Virus record (IMG/VR): IMGVR_UViG_3300028531_000001
Coordinates: 1-64,000 of that record
Source of the DNA: a virus
Taxonomy: Duplodnaviria; Caudoviricetes
Length of the DNA: 64,000 bases
Reading direction: 5' to 3' (one strand)
Shown here: positions 17,836 to 33,042 of the stretch, one piece after another
How the letters are laid out: every line of letters starts with the position of its first letter
How positions within the stretch are numbered: the stretch's first letter is position 1
Program-made: the position numbers and the translations under genes
The notes under the pieces: generated by a model
Seen by the model: only the letters and a program-made list of their open reading frames with translations
What the model was told of the DNA's origin: nothing
Databases searched by the model: none

Positions 17836-18684
17836 TCATCTCAGGCTCAGGACGGCGGGCGACGGCTCGGGCCCCGCGGCGGGCTCGGCCCGGATCAGGT
17901 CGAGCACCGCGGCCTTCCAGCGGATCGGCTGGATCGGCGTCCCGTCGGAGTGGCGTTTGTTGAGGTCCACGTAGACCCCGAAGACCTTGCTGGCCGGCGT
18001 CATCTCCCAGTGCTTGCGGGGCTTGACCTGGAGCCCGGCGGAGGCGAGCCGGAGGTTGACGTCGCGGGGGCCGATCCCGCCGAGCATCGCGCCCAGTTCG
18101 GTCGGCGTGCACAACTTCTCGTTCTCGGGCGACGGCAGGGCGATGGCAAGCTGATCGAGGACGCTAACTCCCCTGCCCTTGCGGTATCCCTTGTCCGCGG
18201 CGAGCAACGCCTGGTTGCCCTCCAGGCCGCACATGCCGACGATCGCCAGGCAGGCGGCGAAGTCGGTCTGCATCGCGGCGTAGTTGACGCCGGCAGGCTG
18301 GACGGGCGGCAGCAGGCCGAAGTGGCGGGCCAGGGCGTCGCGGCACTCGACCTGGAAAAGCTCGAGTTTCGGGCGGATCTCCGGGCCGACCTTACCGACG
18401 TTGATGGTCGCCAGCCACATGGGGACGGAGTTCAGGTCGAGCAGGAATTGTTCCTGCACATGTCCTCTCTCGTCTGGTGTGGGCATAATGCCCATACGAG
18501 CCCACGAAGATGCCCTGAGCTTCTTGAGTTGGGTCGTCAGGTCGATCCCCAGGCTCTCGCAGATCCGGCGGACGGAGACGAGCACCTGCCCTTCCGGGGT
18601 GCGGATCGCTTGCAGTTGGTCGCCGTGGAACTCGATCGTCTCCAGGCGGTTGCGGTCGCTCGGTAGTACGGGGACGCTGGACAT
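17836..18684 (-). CDS. ant: Phage antirepressor (P22 Ant N-terminal domain)
   Basis: 'IEFHGDQL...VSVRRICESLGID...VPMWLATINVGKV.PEIRPKLELFQVEC'. Confidence 0.85.
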   Translation of the reverse strand: MSSVPVLPSDRNRLETIEFHGDQLQAIRTPEGQVLVSVRRICESLGIDLTTQLKKLRASSWARMGIMPTPDERGHVQEQFLLDLNSVPMWLATINVGKVGPEIRPKLELFQVECRDALARHFGLLPPVQPAGVNYAAMQTDFAACLAIVGMCGLEGNQALLAADKGYRKGRGVSVLDQLAIALPSPENEKLCTPTELGAMLGGIGPRDVNLRLASAGLQVKPRKHWEMTPASKVFGVYVDLNKRHSDGTPIQPIRWKAAVLDLIRAEPAAGPEPSPAVLSLR

Positions 18685-18728
18685 TGTCTTCTCCGGCTTG
18701 GATGGGGTGAGGGCTCGGAGGGGCGGGC

Positions 18729-19220
18729 TCAGGCTTCGAAGACGTAGCAGGACTCTTCCGCCAGGCCGAACTCGAACGCCTCGCGGGCGTCGAACATCTC
18801 GATCAGGCGGTACTGCTCGTCGATCTCGTGATTGGCGATCTCGTCCAGCTCGGCCTCGACCTCGGCGCGGGCGTCCATCTCGGCGCGGAGGCGGACGAAC
18901 TCGGCCGGGGCCATCGCTTCGTCGGCGGCGAAGTCGGCGAGCACGTCGCCGCAAGCCGGGTCGGCCTGGATCGCCCGCAGGTGGCGGTGCAGTTCGGCCG
19001 ACTTCCGCGAGAGTTCGTTGGACCGAGCGAGAATCGCCTTGCGTGCGTCGAAGGCGGCATCGCTGTCGTCGCCCCAGGTGGCGTCAATCTGGTCCGAGAG
19101 GGAGAGTTGGATGAGGGCGATGTCGTCGATCCGGTCGAGGATCTCGATCGCGTCGGTGCCGTAGGAGGAGACGGGGATGGAGGCGTGGACGGACCGGGGG
19201 CGGGAGACTACCATGTTCAT
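18729..19220 (-). CDS. Hypothetical acidic helical protein, first gene of leftward operon A
   Basis: 163 aa, GC3 bias, downstream of a sigma70-like promoter. Confidence 0.65.
   Translation of the reverse strand: MNMVVSRPRSVHASIPVSSYGTDAIEILDRIDDIALIQLSLSDQIDATWGDDSDAAFDARKAILARSNELSRKSAELHRHLRAIQADPACGDVLADFAADEAMAPAEFVRLRAEMDARAEVEAELDEIANHEIDEQYRLIEMFDAREAFEFGLAEESCYVFEA
19186..19214 (+). promoter_or_regulatory. Predicted antisense sigma70-type promoter inside the first codons of 18729..19220
   Basis: TGGACG-17 nt-TACCAT. Confidence 0.5.
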
Positions 19221-19221
19221 C

Positions 19222-19300
19222 AGACCTGACCTCGTGCTAGCGGGGTTTGGTTCAGGCTCGGTCGGGAGGGCTCAATCTCCCGGCCGGGCCGTTTTCGTTT
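19222..19300 (+). ncRNA. Predicted cis-antisense sRNA A (two hairpins, terminator)
   Basis: Starts AGACCTG; hairpin 19255-19290 plus T-rich tail; homologous to 29669..29747. Confidence 0.55.
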
Positions 19301-19326
19301 GTCGCGTCTCTCGACCCGACAAGAGC

Positions 19327-19355
19327 ATATTAACTCTGGGTCTGTACTGAGTCAA
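19327..19355 (-). promoter_or_regulatory. Sigma70-type promoter of leftward operon A
   Basis: TTGACT-17 nt-TAATAT on the minus strand. Confidence 0.75.
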
Positions 19356-19468
19356 CAGAAAAGGGAAATAAAATCCGGTCTGGATTCCTCTCGGGTATTG
19401 CGTAGAGTTAAGTCGGTGCTAGAATCCCGTCAGACTGGATGTTGTCTCGTCTTTATGGATGCCCCGAC

Positions 19469-19678
19469 ATGGCTCCCGACAAACCTAAGAAATCAGTGAG
19501 CAAGCAGCCGACGGCAATCACGGTCAGGGGATCGAAGGAATGGCGCAGTTGGGTTGAGAAGATGGCAAAACACTGCATGACGGACACGTCGAAGCTCGTT
19601 GATGCAGCATTAGCGAGATATGGTAAGGAGCAGGGATTCGATGAGCCTCGACCTGACAGGCAAGGCGAGAACAGCTAA
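19469..19678 (+). CDS. Ribbon-helix-helix-like transcriptional regulator
   Basis: 'TAITVRGSKEWRSWVEKMAK...TSKLVDAALARY' beta-alpha-alpha pattern; divergent from operon A. Confidence 0.6.
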   Translation: MAPDKPKKSVSKQPTAITVRGSKEWRSWVEKMAKHCMTDTSKLVDAALARYGKEQGFDEPRPDRQGENS

Positions 19679-19777
19679 CCGCCTTGCTTCGTGATCTGGC
19701 TTACCCTTGCCGAATCGCCTCATAACCCGCAAGAATGGTTGCCATCAATCAACGGCACCATCCCTGCGGGTTTTCTC

Positions 19778-20884
19778 ATGCCGATTTCAGTGACCTGCCC
19801 ATGCGGCAAGAAACTCAAGGCACCCGACGAACTGGCGGGCCGGGTGGCCAAGTGCCCGAAGTGCGGGGCGAATCTGGATATTCCGGTCGAGTTCGCGGTC
19901 CCGGTGCTTGAAGCGGAGCCCGAGCCCGAGCCTGAGCCGCAGGCCGCGACGGCAGCCGATTCCCGGCCCGACGGCTGGATCGTCCGGTGGATGAAGGACC
20001 CGGTTGCGTTCGGCGGGACGCTCGTCATCGTGCTCCTGGTCGTTGGAGGAGGCATCTTCGTCTCCAACCACAACATCCGCATGGGCAAGATCGACGAGAT
20101 CCAGCGGCTGCACGAGCAGGGCCACGGACTGATCCGGGAGGGCGAGATCCTGGACGGCTATGCCACGCTCATGGAGTCGATTCGGATGGCCTCGCCCGAC
20201 GGCCTCGGGGACGAGGGGACGCGTCAGACGCTCGATTCCGACCGCGAGACGGTTGCCAGGATCCTGCCGCAGGTCGAGGCCGAGCGGAAGAAGCTGATCG
20301 AGGAACGGCGAGCCGCGGAACTGGCCGCACTCCGGGAGGAGCAAGGGCGTCGCGAGGCCGAAGAAGCGGAGGCCCGATCCAGGCTCAAATGGAGCGTCGA
20401 GGGCCAGGTCGTGCTCGAGCTCAAGAACGGCAAGGCGATCACGCTGCCGGACCTGAGCGTGCGGATCCTCAAGCCGATGGTCCCGATCGGGGACCTCGGG
20501 GAAGAAGAGAGCGGTGCCCTGCTCTCGACCGTGGCTTTCGCCGGCAAGACGGTCCGCGACGACGTGAACCTCCTGCTGGTCTTCCTGGCCTGCCGCCACG
20601 AGATGATCACCAGCACGGCCTACACGGACTTCCAGAAGATCCGCAAATACACCGACGACCCCACCTGGCCGCCGATCGCCGGGAAAGCCACGGTCGCCCG
20701 GGCCGTGACCGACCATAGCGGCCGGTTCAGGATCGCCGACGTCCCCGACGGCAAATACCTCGCCTACGCCAAGTATCGCTCCGAGGCGGATTACATCGAA
20801 TGGTGCACGCCGATCGAGGTCCACGCCGACACGAAAATCGAGCTCAATAACGAGAAGGCCGCGATCCTCCTGGACGGACGGTGA
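19778..20884 (+). CDS. Zn-ribbon membrane protein of planctomycete type
   Basis: N-terminal CPCG...KCPKCG, one TM helix, coiled coil, C-terminal 'TDHSGRFRIADVPDGKY' prealbumin-like domain. Confidence 0.75.
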   Translation: MPISVTCPCGKKLKAPDELAGRVAKCPKCGANLDIPVEFAVPVLEAEPEPEPEPQAATAADSRPDGWIVRWMKDPVAFGGTLVIVLLVVGGGIFVSNHNIRMGKIDEIQRLHEQGHGLIREGEILDGYATLMESIRMASPDGLGDEGTRQTLDSDRETVARILPQVEAERKKLIEERRAAELAALREEQGRREAEEAEARSRLKWSVEGQVVLELKNGKAITLPDLSVRILKPMVPIGDLGEEESGALLSTVAFAGKTVRDDVNLLLVFLACRHEMITSTAYTDFQKIRKYTDDPTWPPIAGKATVARAVTDHSGRFRIADVPDGKYLAYAKYRSEADYIEWCTPIEVHADTKIELNNEKAAILLDGR

Positions 20885-21028
20885 TCCGCCCCCCGCCCCG
20901 CGCGAAACGCCCCTCCGGTAGGCGTTGCCAAAATTCAACATCGATCCCGCAAACCTAACGCCCAACCCGCCTAAATCGCCCTCGGCTCCCACCCCGCGTC
21001 GTTTCGGCCGAATCCGGGCCCGAAATGC

Positions 21029-21057
21029 TTGCATACTGAATATCAGTACACTAAAGT
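21029..21057 (+). promoter_or_regulatory. Sigma70-type promoter with palindromic operator in the spacer
   Basis: TTGCAT-17 nt-TAAAGT; TACTGA-ATA-TCAGTA at 21034-21048. Confidence 0.55.
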
Positions 21058-21216
21058 CTGCCTGTGAGGGGCGGCCCCGGGGTCTTCACACGCCGCCTTG
21101 CGGGCGTCGGCGGGGCGTCCGACGGATCGTGATACTTGGGGGTTTGTGCGAGAATTGACGCGAACACGTCTCATGAATAAGCTGGCGTCTTCATCGTTGT
21201 TTGCCAGCATGACTCG

Positions 21217-21546
21217 GTGCGGGGTGATCCATTGGAAGTTCAAGCGGAAGACATCGCGGCGGACTTCGATCCCGGCCTAGGGGGCGGGGTGTACCGCTGG
21301 TCCGGCGGCGGCGAGACGGGCCCGGTCCTGTCCTACTTGGCGGTCGAGGGCGCCGGCGACGAGGTGATCTGTACGCGCTGTTATTGGGGCCGCCGGCTGA
21401 CGCTGGGGCCCGTGCTGGAGGCGGAGGGTCGCCGGGCGTCGGGAGGGGGGAATCCCGACCGCTCGACGGTGATCTGGCGCGACGGCAGGCCCGCGGCGTC
21501 GGTGAGCCTGAACGCCGACGGGAGCCTGTGCTCGGTCGAATTCTGA
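21217..21546 (+). CDS. Hypothetical protein
   Basis: 109 aa, abuts the repressor stop convergently; start uncertain. Confidence 0.45.
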   Translation: MRGDPLEVQAEDIAADFDPGLGGGVYRWSGGGETGPVLSYLAVEGAGDEVICTRCYWGRRLTLGPVLEAEGRRASGGGNPDRSTVIWRDGRPAASVSLNADGSLCSVEF

Positions 21547-21876
21547 CTACTTGCTGGCCTCGGGCGGCTCGATCTGCGTCAGGAGCCGCCAGGCTTCCTT
21601 GTAGCCGATGAACCGCACGTACCCCAGGATCTTGTTCTCGAACTCCTGGTCGTACCGGCTCATCGGCGGCAGGGCCGACTGGTCGTCGTCCAGGAAGTAG
21701 GTGACCGGCACCGAGAAGAGTTCCGCGATCTTCTCGATCGTGGCCAGTTGCGGGCGGTGCTCGCCGCGCTCCCAGCGGGTGACGTTCGACCGCGAGACGC
21801 CGACGTAGTCGCCGACCTCACGCTGGGTGAGTCCGCGACGTTCTCGCAGCAGGGCGACCTTTTTTGCGAAGTCCAT
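21547..21876 (-). CDS. XRE-family (CI-like) repressor
   Basis: 'LRERRGLTQREVGDYVGVSRSNVTRWERG' HTH_3; divergent from the early operon. Confidence 0.85.
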   Translation of the reverse strand: MDFAKKVALLRERRGLTQREVGDYVGVSRSNVTRWERGEHRPQLATIEKIAELFSVPVTYFLDDDQSALPPMSRYDQEFENKILGYVRFIGYKEAWRLLTQIEPPEASK

Positions 21877-22114
21877 AGCCCCAGACTTAATCTCTGCGCA
21901 CGAAGTTTCCAAGTCTAGCGTCCCATCTAAAAGCCGGATTGTCACACTTCCTCACCAAGCCATCTTGTTCTTGCCGTCGCCGGTGAGCTTTTGATACATT
22001 CTCTCGGTGCGATGCGGGGACCTTGCTCACCGGCCCGACGTGAATCATTCGCGGGCAGAGGCCGGATCTTTCCCGCGTCGCGTGGAATCAACATTTGTTC
22101 CAGAAGAGGTGAGA

Positions 22115-22660
22115 ATGGGTCACCCCCTGCTCGCGGGCGAGGTGAGGCCGCGGCCACACTCGGACCTGCCGCTGAGGCCGACGGTGCGTTGGATGACCGC
22201 CGAGCACATCCGGGCGGCGGCGGAGATCGACTTCGCGGGCACGCCCTGGGACTGGACGGGGCCCCGCATGGCCGAGTTCCTGGCCCGACGCGGCTGCATG
22301 GGCCGGGTGGCCGAATCGGCCGGCTCGGCGGTCGGGTTCGCGTTGTACGAGGCGAGACGGCCGACGATCGAGGTGCACAAGCTGGTCGTGGACGCCGAAT
22401 ACCGCGGCCTGGGCGTCGGGGAGGCGTTGGTCCGGGCCCTCGCGGCGAAGCTCGACGGGGCGACCTGGGGGCGGCTGCTGATCAACGTGCGCGAGACCAA
22501 CCTGGACGGGCAGCTGTTCCTGCGCGAGCAGGGATTCCTGGGGCGGCGGGTGATCCGGGGCCACTTCCCCGACTCGGGCGAGGACGCGTTCGAGATGGTG
22601 CTGACGGCCGACCGGGCGAGGCTGGCCCGGCCGGGGTTCCTGGGGCGGAGGCCCGCATGA
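22115..22660 (+). CDS. GNAT acetyltransferase, RimI-like
   Basis: 'VDAEYRGLGVGEAL' motif A, 'VRETNLDGQLFL...GF', 'GEDAFEM'; SD GAGGTGA. Confidence 0.8.
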   Translation: MGHPLLAGEVRPRPHSDLPLRPTVRWMTAEHIRAAAEIDFAGTPWDWTGPRMAEFLARRGCMGRVAESAGSAVGFALYEARRPTIEVHKLVVDAEYRGLGVGEALVRALAAKLDGATWGRLLINVRETNLDGQLFLREQGFLGRRVIRGHFPDSGEDAFEMVLTADRARLARPGFLGRRPA

Positions 22661-23490
22661 GGCAGTATCTCGACCTCCTGCGGCACGTCATGGACCACGG
22701 CGAGGACCAGCCGTCGCGTTCCGTCCTGGCCAGCACGGGCGAGCGGCCGTCCACGCGGAGCGTCTTCGGCCATCAGTGCCGCCACGACCTACGCGACGGC
22801 TTCCCGATCGTCACGACGAAGTACGTCCCGTTCCGCCAGGTCGCCGCGGAGCTGGCGTGGTTCCTGAGCGGATCGACCAACGTCGCCCCGCTCCACGAAT
22901 CGGGCGTCCGCATCTGGGACGCCTGGGCGACGGAGGGCGGCGACCTCGGGCCCATCTACGGCGCGTTGTGGCGGAACTGGCAGGGCCGGGGCGGGCGTGT
23001 CGACCAGATCGCGGAACTGGCGGCGGGAATCCGGGCGGTGGCCGACGACCCGCACGACTCGCGGGCGAGGCGGCTGGTCCTCACGTCCTGGGACCCGTCG
23101 GCCATGCGGCAGGTCAAAGGCCCGTCGGGATGCCACACGCTCTGCCAGTTCTACGTCAGCAAAGGCCGGCTGTCCTGCCACCTCTACCAGCGGTCGGCGG
23201 ACCTGTTCCTGGGCGTCCCCTGGAACATCGCGTGCTACGCCCTGCTGACGCACCTGATGGCGAGCCTCTCGGGGCTCGAGCCGTTCGAGTTCATCCACTC
23301 GTTCGGCGACGCCCACATCTACGCGAACCACCTCGATCAGGTGGCCGAGCAACTCACGCGCGACCCCCTGCCCTTGCCGACGCTGAAGATCGACTCCCGC
23401 TTCGGCTCGATCGACCGGTTCGACCCGTCGTGGGTCTCACTCGATAGTTATGCGTCCCATCCCAGGCTCTCGGGCGAGGTGGCTATATGA
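22657..23490 (+). CDS. thyA: Thymidylate synthase
   Basis: MRQYLDLL, LGPIYG, catalytic GCH, YQRSADLFLGVPWNI, GDAHIY. Confidence 0.95.
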   Translation: MRQYLDLLRHVMDHGEDQPSRSVLASTGERPSTRSVFGHQCRHDLRDGFPIVTTKYVPFRQVAAELAWFLSGSTNVAPLHESGVRIWDAWATEGGDLGPIYGALWRNWQGRGGRVDQIAELAAGIRAVADDPHDSRARRLVLTSWDPSAMRQVKGPSGCHTLCQFYVSKGRLSCHLYQRSADLFLGVPWNIACYALLTHLMASLSGLEPFEFIHSFGDAHIYANHLDQVAEQLTRDPLPLPTLKIDSRFGSIDRFDPSWVSLDSYASHPRLSGEVAI

Positions 23491-24029
23491 TCGTCTGCGC
23501 GATCGTGGCGATGGACCGCAACGGACTGATCGGGGCCGGCGGGAAGCTCCCCTGGCACCTGCCGGGCGACTTGAAGCGGTTCCGGGCCCTGACGATGGGC
23601 TGCCCGGTCATCATGGGCCGGAAGACGTTCTGCTCGCTCGGGAAGCCGCTGGATGGCCGGGAGAACATCGTCCTGTCGCGGTCGGGACCGAAGATCGGCA
23701 AGGGCTTCCGGGTCTCCCCGTCGATCGAAGACGCGATCGGCTACCACGAATATTGGGGTACGCCTCGTGTCTGGATCATCGGCGGGGCCGAGGTCTACGC
23801 GGCAACCTGCCACCTGTGGGACGAACTGGCGATCACGAGCGTCGCTGGAGACTACGCGGGGGACGCCCACTTCCCGCTAGACGCGGTCGACGCGATCGGC
23901 TGGAAGCTCGTGAAGCACGCCGGCTTCGTTGTCGGCGGCTTGCCCTTCCACACGGCGAGCAAGTTCCGCCGGATCGAGCCGGGCGAGGCCCCCGTCTCGA
24001 TCAACCCCGCCATCCCGCTCGGATCTTGA
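23487..24029 (+). CDS. folA: Dihydrofolate reductase
   Basis: IG..GKLPWHLPGDLKRFRALT, IMGRKTF, WIIGGAEVY. Confidence 0.95.
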   Translation: MIVCAIVAMDRNGLIGAGGKLPWHLPGDLKRFRALTMGCPVIMGRKTFCSLGKPLDGRENIVLSRSGPKIGKGFRVSPSIEDAIGYHEYWGTPRVWIIGGAEVYAATCHLWDELAITSVAGDYAGDAHFPLDAVDAIGWKLVKHAGFVVGGLPFHTASKFRRIEPGEAPVSINPAIPLGS

Positions 24030-24069
24030 GCCCGCCCTGTCATCAACTTGTCACCGGGAAGTCATCGCC

Positions 24070-24468
24070 ATGTCACTGAACACGCCCGAGCCCGCGCCTA
24101 TCCCGATCGCCGGCCAGCCGGTCTGGCCGCTGGTGATCGCGGACATGAAGGAATACGCCGGCCAGTTCTCGGAAGGGACCAAGACCGCCGAGGTCGCGTG
24201 CCTCATCGCCCTGGACGCATGCGAGCGGGATTCGATCGGCGCCAAGAAGTACGGCACCCCGCTCTGCGTTGGCGACGGCCGGAACGCCCTCGTGGACGCC
24301 TATCAGGAATCGCTCGATCTGATAGTCTATCTCCGTAAAGAGATCGAGGAGTGCCAGGGCGCATCCTTAGCCGATGACGACGGCTTGGCGGTCGCTTACG
24401 AGGACGCGATGAGTGCTGCCCTGCTCCTCAAGACGATCCTGCTCCGGCGCGAAGCCAAGCCCGCCTGA
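24070..24468 (+). CDS. All-alpha NTP-pyrophosphatase (MazG-like) phage protein
   Basis: 'RDSIGAKKYGTPL...DAYQESLDLIVYL' motif. Confidence 0.5.
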   Translation: MSLNTPEPAPIPIAGQPVWPLVIADMKEYAGQFSEGTKTAEVACLIALDACERDSIGAKKYGTPLCVGDGRNALVDAYQESLDLIVYLRKEIEECQGASLADDDGLAVAYEDAMSAALLLKTILLRREAKPA

Positions 24469-24862
24469 CTCCCCTGCCCTGCCCGGCCCTGGAAACACAG
24501 CCAGCCCGCCATCTCCAACGAGGGATGACGGGCTGGCATGGCTCACTTGCCCCGGCAGGGTCGAGACAAGCAATATAGGGCAGCTTTCAAGGCGTGGCGA
24601 CCAACGGACGGGTCCTGGAATCGCCTACTGGCGGTTCGCTGTTGGCCGCGAAGGCGTCCGGGAGGACTGGCTACCCCCGCGGGCACCATAAGAGGGATCG
24701 AACCGCATTCTAGCCAGCGTCGTTTCGCTGAGAGACCTGTGGCCTCGGCACAACCGTGCCCCATGTACGATGCGACCCCGGTGGGATCCTACTGACCAGA
24801 CTGGCCGGCGCTCAGATCCGACAATGCAATAATAGGTCGCTCACCACCGCAAGTCAACACGA

Positions 24863-25273
24863 CTACGACACTGAATCCGTCGAATCGTCCTCAATCGGGA
24901 TCAACTCCATCTTGACCGCCTTCCCATAGATCGCTGCGATCTTGTAGAGCGTATCGAGCGTCGGATTCAGGTGGCGGGCATTCTCCAGTTTGGAGATCGC
25001 CACGCGAGACACGCCCGACTTCTCGGCTGCCTGGTCGAGAGTCCAGCCATGCTCTTCCCTGGCGGTCTTGAGTTCAGACGCGACCTGCGTGATGAAGTAC
25101 CATTGCGGCTGGTACACCGTTCCGCCTTGGTCCTCAAAAAATCCCATCGCCCGTAGCCGCTCTTCGCTCGGCTGCTCCTTGTCGAGCCAGGCAATCTCGG
25201 CCCCTTCAGGCGTGTTGGGATCATAGTACGGATCGTATCCCGGTTCTCCCGGTTTTGGCGTTGGCTTGTCCAT
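24863..25273 (-). CDS. XRE-HTH antitoxin-like regulator
   Basis: 'LKTAREEHGWTLDQAAEKSGVSRVAISKLEN' HTH after an unstructured N-terminus; follows a toxin-like gene. Confidence 0.75.
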   Translation of the reverse strand: MDKPTPKPGEPGYDPYYDPNTPEGAEIAWLDKEQPSEERLRAMGFFEDQGGTVYQPQWYFITQVASELKTAREEHGWTLDQAAEKSGVSRVAISKLENARHLNPTLDTLYKIAAIYGKAVKMELIPIEDDSTDSVS

Positions 25274-25316
25274 ATCGGCTTCCCTTGTTCTCGGGTTGTG
25301 TGTCAGAATGAAAGAG

Positions 25317-25346
25317 GCTGGCCGGGGGTTGCAGCCCCCAGCCAGC
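25317..25346 (-). promoter_or_regulatory. Hairpin between the toxin and antitoxin genes
   Basis: GCTGGCTGGGGG-CTGCAA-CCCCCGGCCAGC then CTCTTTC on the minus strand. Confidence 0.6.
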
Positions 25347-25369
25347 GGTCAGGTTTGCGGCCCACCCCT

Positions 25370-25612
25370 CTAGACGAGGTAGGCTGTGATCACCCGGACC
25401 AGCTTAATCGGCTGGTGTCGTTTGACCCTGTAGACGACTAAGAACCGCTTTCCTTTGGCGGTCCACCCGAACCCGATCGGAAGTCCGCTTGATCGGCTTG
25501 CTTCCGGTTCGTGGTTCGGGTCGCTTATCACTCGCTCGCAGTCCTCCTTTGTGATTGGCCTGTGGGCGAAATGCCCCAGGTTCCATTCGTCCCACTCGAA
25601 CTCAATTTTCAA
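25370..25612 (-). CDS. BrnT/RelE-like toxin
   Basis: 'EFEWDEWNLGHF..RPITKEDCE' and 'FLVVY...VRVITAY'; TTG start with SD AAGGAGG. Confidence 0.7.
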   Translation of the reverse strand: MKIEFEWDEWNLGHFAHRPITKEDCERVISDPNHEPEASRSSGLPIGFGWTAKGKRFLVVYRVKRHQPIKLVRVITAYLV

Positions 25613-25791
25613 AGAGCCTCCTTTCGTCCGATCACCGATCGAACGAGTACACTTTAATGTTCGTCACGAATTAGTTCAAGATCGAAGTTTGAAAACTGTG
25701 AATTTTCGACGCATAAATGACTCATAAACGGCGCATAAAAACAGGGGCCGCGATGGGCCCCCGTGCTGCGACGATGGTGTGTGGCTGAGCT

Positions 25792-27162
25792 TTATCGCAG
25801 CGTCCCCTTCGCGAAGTTCGTCAGGTTATCCCCCTCCGAATCATTCCGCACCGTCGAAGGCTGAGCCGGCCCGCCCGCCTGGACCGTCCCGATGGCCGGG
25901 TACGGCAGCTTCTCGATCACGTCCTCGGCCACCCACCATCCCCCCGGCCCGTAGACGCCGTCCCGCCCCGCCGAGACGATCTGATACGTGTCCGGCTTGT
26001 GCCACCGGCTGTTGGGGATCGGCGGCGGCTTGAGCCCGCCCGTCGCGTAGGGCTCGGCCACCGGCAGGCTCGGCCCGCTGGTGTACGGGTTCGGGCCCGG
26101 CGAGACGACCAGCCCGCGGTACGTGGCGAAGGCACCGACGGGCTCCCCGTCCAGGTTGCAATCGTCGGGGTCGTAGCCCGATCCGTTGTAGGCGGAGAAG
26201 TAGGCGTAGGCCCGCCGCCCCGTCCCCGACCCGAGCGGATCGACGTAGCTGGGGAAGCCGTCCCCGTCGAGGTCCACTAATCGCCCGGCCTGGAACTCGA
26301 ACAGGGGCTTGTCGCGGTTGAGTTCGACCGAGTCGCCGATGAAGGGCTGGGTCTGGCTCTTGGCGAACCCCTGCGTCCCGAAGCCCCCGGCGTGTGGCGC
26401 CGGAAGGCCCCCGAGGAAGAACACCAGGCATTCGTCGCCGGTCAGCAGGACGGGGACGGGGTTGATCTTGCCGTCCCCGTCGAAGTCGTAGCCCCCGCCC
26501 CGCACCGGCAGCGGCTCCTCCAGCGGGATCGTGGACAGGACGACGCGGGGGAATGCCGCGTTCAGCCGACGCCGGGATTCCTCGCGGAACGGGGCCAGCT
26601 CGGGCGCCAGGTCCAGCCAGGTCGCGGCGGAGTAGTCGCCGGTCTCGCACAGGGCGATCTTGCTGGGCGGGTAGTGGCCACGCATCGACTTGTACGCCGC
26701 CTGCCCGGTGGCGAGCATGTTGATCTCGGCCGTGACCGTTGCGTCCTTGGCCGATCGAACCGCCCCGTTGATCGCGGGCAGCAGCAGGGCGATGAGGATC
26801 GCCAGCACGAACATGACGACCAGCAGTTCGACTAGGGTGAAGGCGTTGCGGGATGCTCGTTGATCGAGGTGGCAGCGATCGATTTGATCCCGGAGATTCC
26901 GCCCCACCGTGTTGGCAGTCAGCGTCTGGCCCGAAAGGTGGCCGCTGACGCGGTCAGCCCAATCCTTTGCGTCGGCGATATGAGTAATGCCAGCCTCTTC
27001 ATAGAGGTTAGAGTTGGTGACAATCGTGACTTTGTATTTCGTTTGCCCGAGGCAATCGATGGCCGCCCTGATATCGCCTCGCCGGGCCTGCCATTGGGAC
27101 GGAATTCCGTCTTTCCAGTTCGTCACAGTCCAATCCAGTCTCTTCACGTCGGTCGTAGCCAC
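25792..27162 (-). CDS. Fusion: 107-aa N-terminal domain + type IV pilin/pseudopilin (N-methylation motif)
   Basis: Internal RNA|FTLVELLVVMFVLAILIALLLPAI (Phe108 at 26841); 'YQIVSAGRDG' and 'DNLTNF' C-terminal motifs. Confidence 0.8.
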   Translation of the reverse strand: MATTDVKRLDWTVTNWKDGIPSQWQARRGDIRAAIDCLGQTKYKVTIVTNSNLYEEAGITHIADAKDWADRVSGHLSGQTLTANTVGRNLRDQIDRCHLDQRASRNAFTLVELLVVMFVLAILIALLLPAINGAVRSAKDATVTAEINMLATGQAAYKSMRGHYPPSKIALCETGDYSAATWLDLAPELAPFREESRRRLNAAFPRVVLSTIPLEEPLPVRGGGYDFDGDGKINPVPVLLTGDECLVFFLGGLPAPHAGGFGTQGFAKSQTQPFIGDSVELNRDKPLFEFQAGRLVDLDGDGFPSYVDPLGSGTGRRAYAYFSAYNGSGYDPDDCNLDGEPVGAFATYRGLVVSPGPNPYTSGPSLPVAEPYATGGLKPPPIPNSRWHKPDTYQIVSAGRDGVYGPGGWWVAEDVIEKLPYPAIGTVQAGGPAQPSTVRNDSEGDNLTNFAKGTLR

Positions 27163-27188
27163 AGTCCTGCCCTTTCAAAAGAAGCCGA

Positions 27189-27320
27189 TCAGTCCGCCAT
27201 CACGCTCACGGCCCACCCGTCGTTTGCAGCCTCGGCCCACTTGTATCCCGCCACCGCGACCGCCATGCAGAGCAGCAGGGCGGCCAGGATCAGGCGGGCG
27301 TCGGAGAGGTCAAGTCGCAT
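27189..27320 (-). CDS. Small membrane protein (43 aa)
   Basis: MRLDLSDARLILAALLLCMAVAVAGYKW... Confidence 0.45.
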   Translation of the reverse strand: MRLDLSDARLILAALLLCMAVAVAGYKWAEAANDGWAVSVMAD

Positions 27321-27669
27321 CGGCTCCGGCCTCCGATGAATGTTCCGCCCGAAGCACCTGGATTGCGTCAGCAAAGGTGAACCAGCGAAGCCGGTCGTAT
27401 TCGATCGTTGCGGAGTCGCCGTCGTCTCGGTCCTGAGAAGGCATTCTCTGGACAACGACATTAGCGGGACCAGATGTGTCGCGCGTGATCCCGTACGGGC
27501 CAGTCCTGCCACGCCCAACGCAGAGAACCGTCCCCTCGCTGAACAAAAGAAGCGTGCCCGGATCGCGATGCGGCTCCCTGCTATCGAGGCAGATCTCGGC
27601 AAACGTGGTCTCGCGATCTTCGGAGACCACGGACAAGACGCCGCTGCTGATGAAGATTAGGAGTTTCAA
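27310..27669 (-). CDS. Hypothetical protein
   Basis: 119 aa, coupled to neighbours, TTG start. Confidence 0.45.
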   Translation of the reverse strand: MKLLIFISSGVLSVVSEDRETTFAEICLDSREPHRDPGTLLLFSEGTVLCVGRGRTGPYGITRDTSGPANVVVQRMPSQDRDDGDSATIEYDRLRWFTFADAIQVLRAEHSSEAGADAT

Positions 27670-27890
27670 ACTTCAGCTCCAATGTTTTCGGTGTGTGCGA
27701 AGCAGGGATTCAAGCCATCGTTAAACGCCCAGATAACAAGATCAGCTTCCGCTCCACCCGGCTGATCGCTGAAATACATCAGGTTGCCCGAGAATCGCTT
27801 GACAAATACGAACTTTGGATTCGCTTTGCTGCCAACGGCACTCGGGTCATACAGGAGTCGCTCGCCCACTTTAGGCTTTCGAGTAAGCAT
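27666..27890 (-). CDS. Hypothetical protein (small beta domain)
   Basis: 74 aa, SD AAGGAG. Confidence 0.55.
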   Translation of the reverse strand: MLTRKPKVGERLLYDPSAVGSKANPKFVFVKRFSGNLMYFSDQPGGAEADLVIWAFNDGLNPCFAHTENIGAEV

Positions 27891-27940
27891 TCACTTGACT
27901 CCTTTCCTTGACCTGATAGTAAACTTCGCAACCTTGCTGC

Positions 27941-28228
27941 TCACTTCTCGCCCCCTTCCTTGACCACCGTCAGATCCTTCTCGCCCGTCAGCACCCACCG
28001 GCCGGTCTCCGCATCCCACGTCGCGGGGCTGCCTCCGATCCCTGTCGGCCCATTCTCCGCGCCGATCCCGACCACCGGATACCTCGGCCCGGTGAACCGA
28101 TAGCCGTCCGCATAGACGAGGTAGGCCAGGCTGCACAGGGTAGCCACCACGACCGCCGCCAGGCCGTAGTTCCGAACCCTCAGGCCGGCGCCCGATCCGC
28201 CCTCGCTGATCCCATTCGAGTCAGTCAT
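27941..28228 (-). CDS. Single-TM hypothetical protein
   Basis: 'YGLAAVVVATLCSLAYLVYA' TM segment. Confidence 0.5.
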   Translation of the reverse strand: MTDSNGISEGGSGAGLRVRNYGLAAVVVATLCSLAYLVYADGYRFTGPRYPVVGIGAENGPTGIGGSPATWDAETGRWVLTGEKDLTVVKEGGEK

Positions 28229-28461
28229 CCCAGCCAACTCCCATCCCAAAAGCGCGCGGACCTGCCCTGCGGCCCGAGCCACGCCACGCCCCATGTCGGA
28301 CCCCGGAAACGCCCGGGACCCTCCCCATTCCTCATAGCCCAGAACTTCGATACGATTCGATTCGTCGGAACGGACGGAATATTCTAACGCTTATGTTGTG
28401 AAAACAAGTTCAAGTCTCAAGTTCGGCGCGATTCGGAGTTTTTCTCGCCCAGGTCCTCCGG

Positions 28462-28746
28462 TCAATTCCTCGCCGCAATCCTGTCCTGCCCCGCCTCGCT
28501 CTCTCCTTCATCCAGGCTCGCCAGCCACAGCCTCGCCGGCATCCGGAACGGCACCGGCTTCGCGTTCACGACCTTGAACCACCGCCACTCGAAGCACCTC
28601 CTCACCTTGAACACCCGGCCCTCGTGCGGCCTGAGGACCGACTCAAGCCGGTCCCCGATCTCGGCCAATTGACACGCCGCCTGCTGGCCCGACTCGATCA
28701 TCTCAAGCAGCTTCGTCGCATGGGCGACCAGTTCCGCGTTCGTCAC
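28462..28746 (-). CDS. Hypothetical protein
   Basis: GTG start, 94 aa, GC3 bias. Confidence 0.5.
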   Translation of the reverse strand: MTNAELVAHATKLLEMIESGQQAACQLAEIGDRLESVLRPHEGRVFKVRRCFEWRWFKVVNAKPVPFRMPARLWLASLDEGESEAGQDRIAARN

Positions 28747-28975
28747 TTCGTTCGCTCCCCTCGCGCCTTCGGTCCCCGTGCTTCTCCGTCCGCTTCTGTT
28801 CCAGTTGCTCCCTGGCGAGCCGGGCATCCTCGGTCTCGCCCGGCTCGCCGTCCGCCATGAATGCCAATGTGCCCACCACGACCCCGCCCACGATGATCGG
28901 GCCCCACACCACGAGGAACACGATCACGACGATCTGCTGCGGTAGAGTCAGTTCCACGTCCAAGCTCCGTCCCAT
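28703..28975 (-). CDS. Membrane protein
   Basis: 'IVVIVFLVVWGPIIVGGVVVGTLAF' hydrophobic stretch plus charged tail. Confidence 0.55.
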   Translation of the reverse strand: MGRSLDVELTLPQQIVVIVFLVVWGPIIVGGVVVGTLAFMADGEPGETEDARLAREQLEQKRTEKHGDRRREGSERSDERGTGRPCDEAA

Positions 28976-29053
28976 GAGATGGCCAGGTTCGTCGCGCACC
29001 TTCCACGCGGCCGGGCGAGCATGGGCCCCGCCCGGCGTCCCGCACTCGCCGGA

Positions 29054-29668
29054 TCAGACCCGGCCCAATCGCAGTTCCAGTTCGTCTTCCAGCACGTCGC
29101 CCGGCATGCAATCCATCAGCCAGGCGTCTTCCTCGGCTTCGACCCGGGCCCAATACTCGGCCGCGGTCAGCGTGCGGCCTTCCAGGTACGCGAGGCGGTC
29201 TTCCTCGGACAGGCCCGGGCCATGCGAGGCGGCGGGCTTCCGGTGTGCGGCCTTGTTCCGCTCGAGTTTCCGGACGAACCCGCCGAGGAAATCGGCGAAC
29301 TCGGCGGCGGTCATGTCCCGCGTCAGTTTCGAGGGGCGATCGGCCGTCTCGGGCGAGTAGGCCAGGCCGGACAGGTCGAAGGCGGGGCCCATGTCCGAGA
29401 TACGGCCGAAGTGCGGGGCGGGGGCCTCGTGGGCGGCGTCGACCCGAAGGGCGGGGGAGGGCTCGACCTCGGTGGCTACCTCGACGGCCTCGGCCTGCTC
29501 GACCTCGGCGAAGTATTCCTCGATCCCGTGGCCGAAGTGGGGGAGGCGGTCCCGGTAGTTGCCGCCGTCGAACAGGACCTTCGAGGTGGAGGTGATCTGG
29601 CGGGCCGCGTGGATGGCTTCGGTGGAGGCGGACTTGACGCGGCCGGTGCGTGCGAAGATAGTGCTCAT
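29054..29668 (-). CDS. Hypothetical protein, first gene of leftward operon B
   Basis: 204 aa, GC3 bias, downstream of a consensus promoter. Confidence 0.7.
   Translation of the reverse strand: MSTIFARTGRVKSASTEAIHAARQITSTSKVLFDGGNYRDRLPHFGHGIEEYFAEVEQAEAVEVATEVEPSPALRVDAAHEAPAPHFGRISDMGPAFDLSGLAYSPETADRPSKLTRDMTAAEFADFLGGFVRKLERNKAAHRKPAASHGPGLSEEDRLAYLEGRTLTAAEYWARVEAEEDAWLMDCMPGDVLEDELELRLGRV
29634..29662 (+). promoter_or_regulatory. Predicted antisense sigma70-type promoter inside the first codons of 29054..29668
   Basis: TTGACG-17 nt-GATAGT. Confidence 0.55.
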
Positions 29669-29747
29669 AGACCTGCTCCCACTTATCCTGGGGGTCTGGT
29701 TCAGGCCCGGTTAGGAGTTGGCGCTCCTGGCCGGGCCGTTTGTTTTT
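29669..29747 (+). ncRNA. Predicted cis-antisense sRNA B (homolog of sRNA A)
   Basis: Starts AGACCTG; AGACC/GGTCT hairpin, then hairpin 29704-29737 plus TTTGTTTTT. Confidence 0.6.
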
Positions 29748-29772
29748 GAGGGCTTTCGCTCTCGACAATCAG

Positions 29773-29801
29773 ATAGTACGCCGCATTTCTGGTGATGTCA
29801 A
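29773..29801 (-). promoter_or_regulatory. Sigma70-type promoter of leftward operon B
   Basis: TTGACA-17 nt-TACTAT on the minus strand. Confidence 0.8.
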
Positions 29802-29928
29802 TATTCTGTGTCAGAAATAAATTTTGAACGCCACTCTTATTGACCCGGTGGTATCATGTCTTTGATGTTGTCGAGAACTTGGGTGAGCACTAAATTTCAT
29901 CCCTGAACCGAATCGCGAGGGTCCTGAA

Positions 29929-30153
29929 TTGAGGCTTCAAGTGAAAAAGGGTAGGGGGCGACCGAAGAAACCGACAGGCGAAGGCATTCAGGTCCGGATC
30001 GACTCCGACCTTGTCAGGAAGGCTAAGTTCTTAGCTGCCCTAGAGAACATGGAGCCTGCCGCCTACATTAGTCATCTCTTAAGGCCGGCCGTAGAGCAGG
30101 CATTCAAAAAGGCCGGCAGGGAATTTATCGAGGACGCCCAACCAGAGGAGTAA
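29929..30153 (+). CDS. RHH-like regulator with AT-hook-like KKGRGRPKK (start 29929 TTG or 29941 GTG)
   Basis: 'IQVRIDSDLVRKAKFLAALE...ISHLLRPAV' pattern; divergent from operon B. Confidence 0.6.
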   Translation: MRLQVKKGRGRPKKPTGEGIQVRIDSDLVRKAKFLAALENMEPAAYISHLLRPAVEQAFKKAGREFIEDAQPEE

Positions 30154-30265
30154 TTTGCAACTTGCAAATAACCCCGGAACCATCCGCCTCGTTCAGTCTT
30201 TTGCAAGTTGCAAATAACCACCGCCGGGCCTGACCGGCACAGCCCTCTTTTGCAAGTTGCAAATA
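30153..30265. repeat. Three parS-like 15-bp palindromes TTTGCAA(C/G)TTGCAAA
   Basis: Copies at 30154, 30200 and 30249, each followed by TA, directly upstream of parA. Confidence 0.85.
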
Positions 30266-30343
30266 GGCCGAGTCGACTCCAGACGCCAGCGACCAACCGC
30301 CGATCCTCTCTAATGCCCCAATGACGGGGCAGGGGAGGATCGC

Positions 30344-31135
30344 ATGCGTTCGATCGTGCTGCTGAATCAGAAGGGCGGGGTCGGCAAGACCTCGACCTGC
30401 CACCATCTCGCGGGGACGCTGGCCAAGCGGGGCCGGCGCGTCCTCTGCCTGGACGTCGATCCCCAGGCCAGCCTGACGCAGGGCTTCTTCGGGCCCGAGT
30501 GGACCCGGTCGCTCGACCCGTCGCGGTCGATCGCGGCGTACTACACCGAGGAAGGATTCGACCCGTCGATCCCGATGGCGGTCGAGACGCCGGTGCAGGG
30601 GGTCTCCATCATCCCCGGCTCGGCCCGCCTGAACTCGTTCAACCTGCCGGACCCCGAGGGCGACCACCGGCAGTTCGTCCTGCGCGAGGCCCTGGCGGAC
30701 CTGGAAGGCCAGTACGACGACGTGCTGATCGACTGCCCGCCCAATCTCTGCTTGTGCTCGTGGTCGGCCCTGGCGGCGGCGGACGGGGTCATCGTTCCGC
30801 TCCAGGCCGAGGACTACGGCGCGCAAGGGATTTTCGCGATCACCGGCGCGATCGAGGCCGCCCGCCAGCAGGTCAACGCCTCGCTGGAGCTCTACGGCTT
30901 CCTGATCACGATGTACAACAAGGCCCTGTCGATCCACGTCGCCTACGCGAGCCAGCTCCGCGACCTCTACGGGGCGAAGGTCTTCGCCACCGAGATCCCG
31001 CTGGCCAAGGACTTCAAGGAGGCCGTCGCCAGCCGCCTGCCGATCTCGCACTACAAGCCGAAGTCCGCACCGGCCAGGACGCTGGCAGCCCTGGCCGCGG
31101 AGCTCGACGCGCTGACCATGACGGAGGCCGCGTGA
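30344..31135 (+). CDS. parA: ParA family partition ATPase
   Basis: Deviant Walker A KGGVGKTS, DVDPQASLT, LIDCPP. Confidence 0.95.
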   Translation: MRSIVLLNQKGGVGKTSTCHHLAGTLAKRGRRVLCLDVDPQASLTQGFFGPEWTRSLDPSRSIAAYYTEEGFDPSIPMAVETPVQGVSIIPGSARLNSFNLPDPEGDHRQFVLREALADLEGQYDDVLIDCPPNLCLCSWSALAAADGVIVPLQAEDYGAQGIFAITGAIEAARQQVNASLELYGFLITMYNKALSIHVAYASQLRDLYGAKVFATEIPLAKDFKEAVASRLPISHYKPKSAPARTLAALAAELDALTMTEAA

Positions 31136-32040
31136 TGGCGAAGGGTGCCGACATGCTCCGCGCGAAATTCGGCGCGAACATGGCCGAGTCGATGGCCGCC
31201 AGCACGACCGCCCACGCCCCGCACATCATGCCGGGGGCCGGGTCCGCCCAGGAGAAGCAGGAGGGGACCAAGGCCCTCCGCGACGGGAAATTGATCGAGC
31301 TCCGGAAGATCATGCCCGACCCCGACCAGCCGCGCAAGGCGTTCGAGCCCGAGGAACTCGAGCGGCTCTCGTCGTCGATCCGGGACAGGGGGGTGCTCCA
31401 GCCGATCCGCGTCCGCTGGTCGGACGAGCACAGGATGTGGGTCATCATCGCGGGCGAGCGGAGGTATCGGGCCGCACGGATCGCGGGCCTGTCCGAGCTG
31501 CCGTGCGTGACGGTCCACGCCGAGCAGGACGCGGGCGAACTCCTGATCGACCAGCTGATCGAGAACTGCCTCCGCGAGGACCTCCAGCCGATCGAGCAGG
31601 CCAACGCGTTCAAGGCCCTCATGGACCGCAACGACTGGCCGGCCTCGCGCCTGGCGATCGAGTTGAACCTTTCGAACTCGATGGTCAGCCGGGCCCTGGC
31701 GCTCCTGAAGCTCGCCCCGGAACTCCAGGCGCAGGTGGACGCGGGCGAGTTGCCGGCATCGACCGCCGTGCAGATCGCGAGGGTCGAGGACCCCGCCGCC
31801 CAGGTCGAGCTCGCCGAACGGTCCAGGACCGAGAGCGTCAAGGCGATCAAGGCCGAGGTCGCGAGCGAGGCACCCAGGGGCAGGGGGCGCGTGGCCACCC
31901 GCATCACGATTTCCAGGGCATACGGCCAATCGACCCTAACCTACGCAGGTCCGGTGGGGGCATCTCGCCAGGAAGCGATCGAGGCCGCGAAGAAGTTCCT
32001 GAAGGACCTGGCGAAGGACCCGAAGCTGTCGGACGGCTGA
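31135..32040 (+). CDS. parB: ParB family partition protein
   Basis: PDPDQPRKAF, IAGERRYRAA CTP-binding motif, REDLQPIEQA, HTH. Confidence 0.95.
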   Translation: MAKGADMLRAKFGANMAESMAASTTAHAPHIMPGAGSAQEKQEGTKALRDGKLIELRKIMPDPDQPRKAFEPEELERLSSSIRDRGVLQPIRVRWSDEHRMWVIIAGERRYRAARIAGLSELPCVTVHAEQDAGELLIDQLIENCLREDLQPIEQANAFKALMDRNDWPASRLAIELNLSNSMVSRALALLKLAPELQAQVDAGELPASTAVQIARVEDPAAQVELAERSRTESVKAIKAEVASEAPRGRGRVATRITISRAYGQSTLTYAGPVGASRQEAIEAAKKFLKDLAKDPKLSDG

Positions 32041-32701
32041 CCATAGGGCCCCACTTCGACCGGTCGACCGCCGCGTCCTCGGGCGGCAACCCCGCCAGCG
32101 ACCTCCACAGCCCCCGCATCGGGTGTCCCGGCGGGTACTCCGCCAGCTTCGCCAGGGCCTCGGCCTTCTCCGCCTCGGGCATGGCGACCGACGCGGGCTC
32201 GGGCGGGGCCTGCGGTCCGGGGGGCTTCGCTTCCGTCTCCCCCCGGACCGGCCCGGGGCTCCCCAAGCCCACGGGGCCGGTTTCTCCTTTTCTCTTCCCT
32301 TGTGGATCTAATTCGGGTGCGAGCGATTTCACCCCGGGGGATGACGCCGATTTCACCCGGGGCGTGTCAGGAATTTCACCCCCCCTCCAAATGAGATAGA
32401 TCAGCCGGCCGCTGGCGAAACGGCCCGAGGCGTCGTCCTCGCGGCGGATGTGCCCGGCCTTCTCGAGCCGCGAGAGGCTCGACTGGATCGTCCGCTCGGA
32501 GCACCGGCCCATGCCGGCCAGGGTGCGGTTTCCCATCGAGGCCCAGTCCTTCGACCGGGCAAATCGGAGGATCGACGCCAGCGTCTGGATGTCCCGGGCC
32601 TTCAGCCTCGGGTCGTCCTGGACGTGATGGGGGACCGCCGAGAAGAACGGCACTTTCGGCTTGCTTCGCGCGGTCGGGCGCGTACAATCGACGTAGCTCA
32701 T
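31904..32701 (-). CDS. Winged-HTH plasmid-type replication initiator (putative); 3' end overlaps parB
   Basis: 'FSAVPHHVQDDPRLKARD...RTLAGMGRCSERTIQSSLSRLEKAGHIRR' HTH_36-like. Confidence 0.65.
   Translation of the reverse strand: MSYVDCTRPTARSKPKVPFFSAVPHHVQDDPRLKARDIQTLASILRFARSKDWASMGNRTLAGMGRCSERTIQSSLSRLEKAGHIRREDDASGRFASGRLIYLIWRGGEIPDTPRVKSASSPGVKSLAPELDPQGKRKGETGPVGLGSPGPVRGETEAKPPGPQAPPEPASVAMPEAEKAEALAKLAEYPPGHPMRGLWRSLAGLPPEDAAVDRSKWGPMVSRPTASGPSPGPSGTSSRPRSLPGEMPPPDLRRLGSIGRMPWKS
32325..32383. repeat. Three iteron-like ATTTCACCC repeats inside rep
   Basis: Copies at 32326, 32350 and 32373 (period 23-24). Confidence 0.6.
32661..32688 (+). promoter_or_regulatory. Predicted countertranscript promoter inside the 5' end of rep
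   Basis: TTGCTT-16 nt-TACAAT. Confidence 0.55.
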
Positions 32702-32805
32702 TGGGCCTGATTCCCGTTGAGTGCCACGCTCAGGCGGTGCGGGCAAGCACCGACCCCGAGCAAATCAATGCCCCGCGGACGCTGCAAACGTTCGCGGGGT
32801 TTTTT
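32695..32805 (+). ncRNA. Predicted countertranscribed RNA antisense to the rep leader
   Basis: Ends in CCCCGCGGACG-CTGCAAA-CGTTCGCGGGG-T6 (32771-32805). Confidence 0.55.
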
Positions 32806-33042
32806 CGTACCCTCATATCTATCGCGCCCGGTCTCAATTGGCAAGCTCCAGTAATACTGGAATCTCCGCCGACCGATGCGCGGTAATACCGAGGTCCCGA
32901 ATCCTATCCCGTAAACGCAAGGCTGCCGCGGCCTCCGCCGCTCGGTGCATGCGTTCAGTTTACTCGATCAGGCCGGCCGATCAAGGCCGATGATCCATTT
33001 TCTCACCTACAGTCTCAATTGCGACAATTCTGCATTTCCGCC

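Follow-up and report, generated by a model that had tools for sequence, protein, structure and literature searches.

A covarying family of predicted cis-antisense RNAs opposite start codons in a putative planctomycete phage-plasmid, its relatives and Isosphaeraceae genomes

Two paralogous elements, copies A and B, lie in the 64-kb window analysed here (the whole stretch of DNA under study, which is the first part of a 76.9-kb IMG/VR virus record), and each specifies an RNA that we take, with a probability of roughly 0.7, to be a cis-encoded antisense RNA of ~80 nt blocking translation initiation of the first gene of its target. The RNA family is previously uncatalogued and the proposed mechanism is classical. 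The family is supported by covariation and has clear targets: the two RNAs would gate two leftward operons, one encoding an Ant antirepressor (copy A) and one lying beside an RHH-like gene and the phage-plasmid partition genes parA and parB (copy B).

Two paralogous elements and the leaders that they oppose

The target of copy B is a 204-aa gene on the minus strand (29054-29668; ORF list and GC3), the first in a leftward operon of four genes without assigned function that reaches ~27941; homologues of its product were recovered (P0002, P0003). The promoter scan, which returned 5 sites in 12 kb where 1.4 are expected, places at this locus both of the facing promoters that the sequence-only reading had described. 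The target mRNA promoter (29801-29773, minus strand) consists of TTGACA (29801-29796), a 17-nt spacer and TACTAT (29778-29773), while the antisense promoter (TTGACG-17-GATAGT; 29634-29662, plus strand) is embedded within codons 3-12 of the target gene. The predicted antisense RNA (~80 nt, 29669-29748, plus strand, its ends placed from promoter and terminator) starts one base beyond the complement of the start codon (29666-29668) with AGACCUG, the plus strand reading AGACCTG from 29669 as had been noted from the sequence, and overlaps nearly all of the ~97-nt leader of the target mRNA.

The plus strand of 29669-29750 folds into two hairpins followed by a U tail (-45.1 kcal/mol, z -4.5), and the RNA scores 92.5 bits against our covariance model, R1. 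Hairpin 1 (29670-29701) is built from an outer GACC/GGUU helix, an inner 7-bp stem and a 7-nt loop, CUUAUCC (29682-29688). Its 5' arm CUCCC (29676-29680) is the complement of the Shine-Dalgarno sequence GGGAG, 7 nt before the AUG, so that full pairing of the RNA with its target would occlude the ribosome-binding site. The compensatory change of GGGAG/CUCCC to AGGAG/CUCCU between the two copies stands as first proposed, whereas the outer helix drawn at that time as AGACC/GGTCT is better placed in the GACC/GGUU register, since this register is common to both copies and is the one used by the covariance model. A GUUCA linker joins hairpin 1 to hairpin 2 (29704-29737; 14 bp in the model and 15 bp in the MFE fold and the terminator scan), which together with the U-rich tail GUUUGUUUUUG (29704-29748) is called as an intrinsic terminator by the terminator scan. 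The tail that follows the 15-pair hairpin is GTTTGTTTTT, and a terminator is seen on the plus strand only.

Copy A (19186-19301, plus strand) is a paralogue of copy B with the same layout. Its antisense promoter (TGGACG-17-TACCAT, 19186-19214) precedes a predicted RNA running from 19222 to ~19301, which folds at -48.5 kcal/mol (z -6.2) with hairpin 1 at 19223-19252 and the terminator hairpin at 19255-19290, and it faces a target mRNA promoter on the minus strand (TTGACT-17-TAATAT, 19355-19327). The target operon (17836-19220, minus strand) begins with a 163-aa gene (18729-19220) and continues with Ant, whose ORF stops at 17836 and which spans ~17836-18684 by homology to the metagenomic relative L124; the assignment follows from a P22_AR_N domain (Pfam PF10547, E 1e-26) and from PHROG 524, ‘anti-repressor Ant’. 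No Ant is present at the copy B locus. The two sequence motifs that the first reading had pointed out as common to both copies were confirmed, each occurring exactly twice in the window (19249/19277 and 29698/29724; 0.00 and 0.02 matches expected by shuffling), and the whole 76.9-kb record contains copies A and B only.

The similarity between the copies is confined to the control region. Target proteins A (163 aa) and B (204 aa) have no detectable relationship, nor do the divergent small proteins of the two loci, and the DNA can be aligned from ~15 codons inside the targets, across the leader, to the leftward -35 box. The repeated unit is thus a regulatory cassette and not a gene; homology of proteins A and B beyond the ~15 N-terminal codons was considered and rejected by protein comparison. 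Within those first ~15 codons (19176-19220 and 29624-29668) the otherwise unrelated proteins follow a pattern of approximately M-x-x-V/I-x-S/A-R-P/T-x-R-x-V-H/K-x-S, the conserved residues of which overlie the antisense -35 box, so the peptide conservation may be due to the promoter.

From this layout a sequence of events can be proposed. The RNA would be transcribed from a σ70-type promoter within the first dozen codons of the target, begin beside the start codon, run against the mRNA leader and stop at its own intrinsic terminator ~20 bp short of the mRNA start site. The apical loop of hairpin 1 would make the first contact with the complementary loop of the leader, and pairing would then spread across the ribosome-binding site, so that the first gene could not be translated; the duplex would probably be cleaved, and expression of the downstream genes lost through polarity. 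A constant scaffold and terminator would be supplied by the GUUCA linker together with the 3' hairpin, while the differing tops of hairpin 1 would keep channels A and B apart. Convergent promoters may add transcriptional interference, and the divergent RHH-like gene may add repression at the protein level, as in the Arc/Mnt/sar system of P22 and the CopG/RNAII system of pMV158 (PMC2629481, PMC4485353). At the copy B locus this small gene (29929-30153, plus strand) is followed by ParA and ParB, and its product weakly resembles ribbon-helix-helix or HicB-type repressors (PHROG 9151, E 0.0037; PHROG 4738, E 0.028).

The promoters of copy B face each other ~97 bp apart, and copy A and the homologues share this geometry, which is also what would be found if the antisense transcript were real and acted mainly at the level of DNA or transcription, through collision, occlusion or duplex-triggered decay of the mRNA, and hindered ribosome binding little in a direct way; known antisense systems often mix such effects. 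However, the strong terminator ends the antisense RNA before the mRNA promoter, limiting interference by that route, and interference alone has no need of a precise two-hairpin fold with an anti-Shine-Dalgarno arm and a variable loop, so that we consider an effect of this kind unlikely to be the main function.

The copy B leader region contains one further element. A perfect 9-nt inverted repeat, TCTCGACAA / TTGTCGAGA (29760-29768 and 29868-29876), is located just downstream of the -10 boxes of both divergent promoters and flanks both transcription starts. A related sequence, CTCTCGAC, is kept in copy A and in its relative L125. The repeat may serve both promoters as an operator, or may be a motif common to the two 5' ends.

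Distribution of the family and conservation of its promoter

Besides copies A and B the family comprises 13 members, which come from metagenomic relatives of the phage, other mobile elements and Isosphaeraceae chromosomes. Homologues of the target proteins in metagenomes led to relatives of copy B (L005-L008 at 92% identity and L009 at 59%) and of copy A (L124 at 94% and L125 at 67%), and the leftward target promoter is conserved in both L124 and L125. A pattern scan added L023/L035, L029 and L108, each on an unrelated gene: respectively, a GerE/LuxR-type HTH gene in another phage (by eye, possibly σ70 region 4), a 72-aa gene ahead of a dnaB-like gene (judged from its translation) and, in an Acidobacteriota MAG, a 165-aa gene ahead of what is by eye a radC-like gene. 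Conservation of GUUCAGGC...GGGCCGUU in these three pattern-found members is not independent, because the pattern forced the linker and the base of the stem. They are what was kept from genome and metagenome pattern scans that returned 56 matches each, mostly ordinary terminators or coding sequence. A second, stricter pattern scan gave no convincing member, exact-pattern scans of IMG/VR gave chance coding matches only, and an IMG/VR search for loci related to proteins A and B found none.

The search with the covariance model, which the sequence-only reading had suggested for finding covarying homologues and which was here built from the members named so far, did recover them, with matches in 13 of 121 Isosphaeraceae genomes. 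The same model gave two weak matches only in 151 genomes sampled across Planctomycetota, and one weak match in the five genomes that hold the closest relatives of the viral β clamp. The clear members from the Isosphaeraceae search are L170 and L171, with two copies each, L167 and L161. The paired copies of L170 and L171 are 1.4 kb apart on their chromosomes, and each copy faces the beginning of a different gene. In L170 (7360-9823, chromosome G211) the targets are tandem ~330-aa paralogues starting M/V-TTL-H/L-D; in L171 (6729-8782, chromosome G263) one target of the ~330-aa type is accompanied by an unrelated 201-aa target, and a DDE transposase lies alongside. The L161 member (1501-1594, minus strand) has the same hairpin 2 loop as copy A (GGGCUCAAU) and is without a U tail, and its target, of 118 aa, weakly resembles protein B towards the C-terminus (E 0.002). 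Across the family the target proteins range from 72 to 337 aa, and proteins A and B and the 330-aa Isosphaeraceae targets have no Pfam, PHROG or Atlas match. One further candidate, L014/L031, has the right fold and scores 34 bits; it was excluded as ambiguous, since it follows a higA-like gene, no target ORF is evident and the U tail is weak.

No sequence anywhere in the window matches Rfam 15 at gathering score, hence the RNA falls outside the curated families. With E values of up to 5 allowed, the region 18600-30400 gives nothing relevant, and two chance matches fall elsewhere. In the literature that we searched, a set that left the viral RNA-structure catalogue PMC10690425 outside, no account of RNAs of this kind in phages of planctomycetes came to light.

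Members of the family share both the promoter and its position relative to the target. In all 15 an ORF on the opposite strand, 72 aa or longer, has its start codon between -9 and +10 relative to the predicted first base of the RNA. The -35/-10 pairs are separated by spacers of 16–18 nt and end 6–9 nt ahead of that base (for instance, TTGACG-17-GATAGT, TGGACG-17-TACCAT, TTGACG-17-TAGCGT and TTGTCG-17-TACCAT). A positional σ70 score of at least 8 is found in 14 of the 15 members and at 8.8% of background positions, and a score of at least 10 in nine members and at 0.5% of the background; the non-redundant mean promoter score was reached in none of 20000 resamples. Relatives of copy B keep the -35 box and the 17-nt spacer (L005, TTGACG-17-GACGAT; L009, TTGACG-17-GAGGAT), and across six variants of the A and B types -11A and -7T are invariant while the other -10 bases differ. 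The -10 boxes GATAGT, GACGAT and GAGGAT are weak, and the promoter rules of planctomycetes are poorly known.

Terminators of the form GGCCCGG...CCGGGCC seem to be common in Isosphaeraceae, so some of the 30–35-bit matches may be generic terminators. The whole element could be a terminator or insulator of a generic Isosphaeraceae type that guards the operon boundary against stray antisense transcription and has no regulatory role, the likeness of the copies being that of a widespread kind of terminator, and it is true that many of the weak model matches in this family of bacteria are GGCCCGG...CCGGGCC hairpins with GUUUUCGUUUG-like tails and that the genome pattern scans returned mainly ordinary terminators or coding matches. 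Yet hairpin 1, the GUUCA linker, the upstream promoter and the abutment to the start codon are foreign to a plain terminator, and the plus strand upstream of the copy B RNA has no gene that would require termination (ORF list and GC3), making such a role very improbable. Elsewhere in the window a near-perfect GC-rich palindromic hairpin (25317-25346; GCTGGCTGGGGG...CCCCCGGCCAGC) weakly matches helix 2 of the model, whichever strand is read, and is probably an ordinary terminator.

Covariation, the folded strand and the variable loop

The sequence-only reading had proposed a structurally conserved small RNA family, and the 13 further members bear this out. In an alignment of 16 rows (the 15 members and one reverse-strand partial match) 93% of cells are paired and 18 of 25 pairs are changed on both sides, counts that lean toward structure because the alignments are model-fitted and contain relatives. 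The same caution applies to a 9-member alignment, in which 92% of cells are paired and 14 of 25 pairs are changed on both sides, and to helix 2, which is 99% paired with 10 of its 14 pairs changed on both sides. The covariation score is 0.563 as against 0.246 in shuffles, none of 500 shuffles reached any of five measures, and slid-partner controls pair at only 34–58%. Double changes in helix 2 can be read directly in the raw sequences, both in L009 (G-C to A-U and A-U to G-C) and in L125 (C-G to U-A and A-U to U-A).

Wobble pairs identify the strand on which the fold is selected. The alignment contains 68 G·U pairs, 39 of them in hairpin 1, versus 2 A·C, which argues for selection on the strand antisense to the mRNA; pairing is 92.7% on this strand and drops to 74.9% if read on the mRNA strand. 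Folds of the antisense strand have z values of -3.9 to -6.2 while the mRNA strand is often near random. For L009 the antisense fold is -43.3 kcal/mol (z -6.1) versus -25.5 kcal/mol (z -2.1) for the sense strand, and for L023 the corresponding values are -37.8 kcal/mol (z -4.4) and -22.3 kcal/mol (z -0.6).

These comparisons bear on the opposite assignment, in which the functional structure is a hairpin of the mRNA leader that hides the Shine-Dalgarno sequence (as a thermometer, a protein site or a riboswitch-like element) and the plus-strand promoter is fortuitous. The copy B leader can indeed pair part of GGGAG (-40.4 kcal/mol, z -3.3), and the first reading of the sequence had included a mirror hairpin in the mRNA covering the ribosome-binding site. 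As a selected structure, however, the mirror hairpin did not hold up: it is far less stable, since on the sense strand G·U pairs turn into A·C mismatches, an imbalance of 68 to 2 in the alignment, and the comparative data do not support it, sense folds of the homologues being near random (z -0.6 for L023, -1.8 for L125 and -2.1 for L009). The U tail follows the hairpin on the plus strand only and the promoter position is kept in 14 of the 15 members, which leaves the leader assignment a slim chance. Two other readings of the element were rejected, a DNA palindrome serving as operator since pairing is maintained by G·U pairs and covariation and not by sequence, and a leftward terminator or attenuator since the minus strand is without a U run after the hairpin.

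While the stems of hairpin 1 are retained among close relatives and paralogues, the loop differs. L005 and the copy B region share ~99% identity across 3.6 kb, and the RNA element itself is altered solely at two loop positions, 29684 and 29687 (CUUAUCC in copy B and CUGAUAC in L005); L009 carries UUCACAG on the same stem. The two paralogues on chromosome G263 have identical hairpin 1 stems with the loops GUGAUAU and GUUAAGA. Since the RNA is cis-encoded, a change in the loop alters the RNA and its target together, and the combination of loop divergence among close relatives with cis-encoding favours pairing that is initiated by the loop and followed by a block of translation. Loop-encoded specificity, as suggested from the sequence of the two copies, is consistent with these data. 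A YUNR U-turn motif is present in the hairpin 1 loops of copies A and B, L005, L009, L029, the second L171 copy (L171b) and the first L170 copy (L170a), though not in all members, and is suggestive only.

The differences between copy B and L005 cluster at two places, the loop positions 29684/29687 and the antisense -10 box and spacer (29648-29661). The latter stretch has 9 changes in 14 nt and also spans codons 3–7 of gene B, so that the N-terminus of the protein reads MSTIFAR in the window and MSIVATR in L005. This hot spot is either a recombination patch or the result of selection on promoter strength.

A broader interpretation, which we hold only tentatively, is that the element is a portable antisense cassette that has moved onto at least six unrelated genes, with the hairpin 1 loop under diversifying selection toward orthogonal channels. 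The cassette so defined would consist of a promoter in ~15 N-terminal codons, an anti-Shine-Dalgarno hairpin that varies, and a GUUCA linker and terminator that stay fixed, carried by phages, plasmids and chromosomal islands of Isosphaeraceae. If this were true, the loop variants of copy B and L005 would define heteroimmunity or incompatibility types, and no RNA-based immunity code would have been described before in mobile elements of planctomycetes.

Relation to known antisense systems and setting in the virus

A close parallel in an antirepressor operon is phage P22, where ant is controlled by the repressors Arc and Mnt plus the antisense sar RNA (PMC2629481, citing Liao et al. 1987 and Wu et al. 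1987). Like sar, the RNAs predicted here are short cis-antisense RNAs with their own promoter and terminator, complementary to a ribosome-binding site and, for copy A, associated with an antirepressor operon; small repressors may act alongside. They differ in showing no sequence or Rfam covariance-model similarity to sar, in covering the ribosome-binding site of the first gene of the operon and not that of ant, in having the promoter within the first codons of the target, and in their likely planctomycete host. In comparison with the P22 immI region the RHH-like small gene is divergent, and its Arc-like or HicB-like PHROG matches are weak (E 0.05 and 0.004).

The placement of the promoter is that of RNA-OUT from IS10, which is transcribed from just inside the 5' end of its target and fires outward over the start codon and ribosome-binding site. 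RNA-OUT forms a stable stem-loop; pairing begins at the loop and leads to a block of translation. The likeness to IS10 lies in promoter position and in the outward direction across start codon and ribosome-binding site, whereas the targets here are not transposases (no Pfam match), there are two hairpins with a separate terminator, and Rfam gives no match.

CopG of pMV158 is an RHH protein. This repressor and the antisense RNAII jointly control repB (PMC4485353), and in the related systems of plasmids R1 and pIP501 loop mutations create new incompatibility groups (PMC4485353). With such plasmid countertranscripts (pMV158 RNAII and R1 CopA; PMC4485353, PMC5415839) the present elements would share the pairing of a small repressor with a translation-inhibiting cis-antisense RNA, a terminator hairpin that doubles as scaffold, and recognition-loop changes of the kind that give rise to new specificity groups. 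The plasmid RNAs control replication initiator genes, however, while those described here oppose an antirepressor operon and an operon without assigned function.

Heteroimmunity between P1 and P7 rests on a few base changes in an RNA and its target. The c4 RNA of these phages and the CA RNA of N15 arise by processing of the sense transcript, upstream of their targets, with which they pair through short patches. Both silence the antirepressor operon of a plasmid prophage via its first cistron, with a polar effect on ant (PMC8201110, PMC4488713). In contrast to c4, the predicted RNA of the present family is a true countertranscript from the opposite strand, and the Rfam C4 model does not match it. 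On the best reading of these likenesses, the family would work in the manner of P22 sar, IS10 RNA-OUT and pMV158 RNAII, as a functional analogue of P1 c4.

The proposed mechanism being textbook, the value of the finding lies in the new family and the new lineage. The family illustrates neatly how nature can reuse one antisense scaffold and entails no new principle, and it leads to predictions on lysis-lysogeny control and on the means by which closely related elements escape cross-talk. How Planctomycetota and their phages regulate their genes has hardly been explored.

The window encodes structural genes, the Ant antirepressor, the partition proteins ParA and ParB and a β clamp, a gene content that points to a temperate phage kept as a plasmid. 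ParA (30344-31135, plus strand; AAA_31/CbiA) and ParB (31135-31947, plus strand; ParB_N and HTH_ParB) are assigned by domain matches, and this cassette (30344-31947) together with a putative rep gene marks the virus, by gene content, as a presumptive plasmid prophage. The closest relatives of the β clamp, at 57% identity, are in Isosphaeraceae (Planctomycetota) assemblies, making this the likely host family. The position on a phage-plasmid beside parA and parB and the antisense-over-ribosome-binding-site layout would also suit an addiction module (type I toxin-antitoxin or of the hok/sok kind, with a toxic target and an unstable antisense antidote that together stabilise the plasmid prophage), but the targets are soluble-looking proteins of 72–337 aa from several unrelated families, one of them in an operon with Ant, and not hydrophobic peptides of less than ~60 aa such as type I toxins usually are, so that this has little to recommend it.

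A third candidate countertranscript is encoded further to the right (32660-32806, plus strand) and is unrelated to copies A and B, covariance model R1 giving no match to it. Its promoter, TTGCTT-16-TACAAT, is positioned within the initial codons of a gene read leftward (CAT at 32698-32700), a possible rep with a weak HTH_36 match. The candidate RNA is predicted to form three hairpins, the last a 12-bp stem followed by T6, with a folding energy of -54 kcal/mol (z -3.4).
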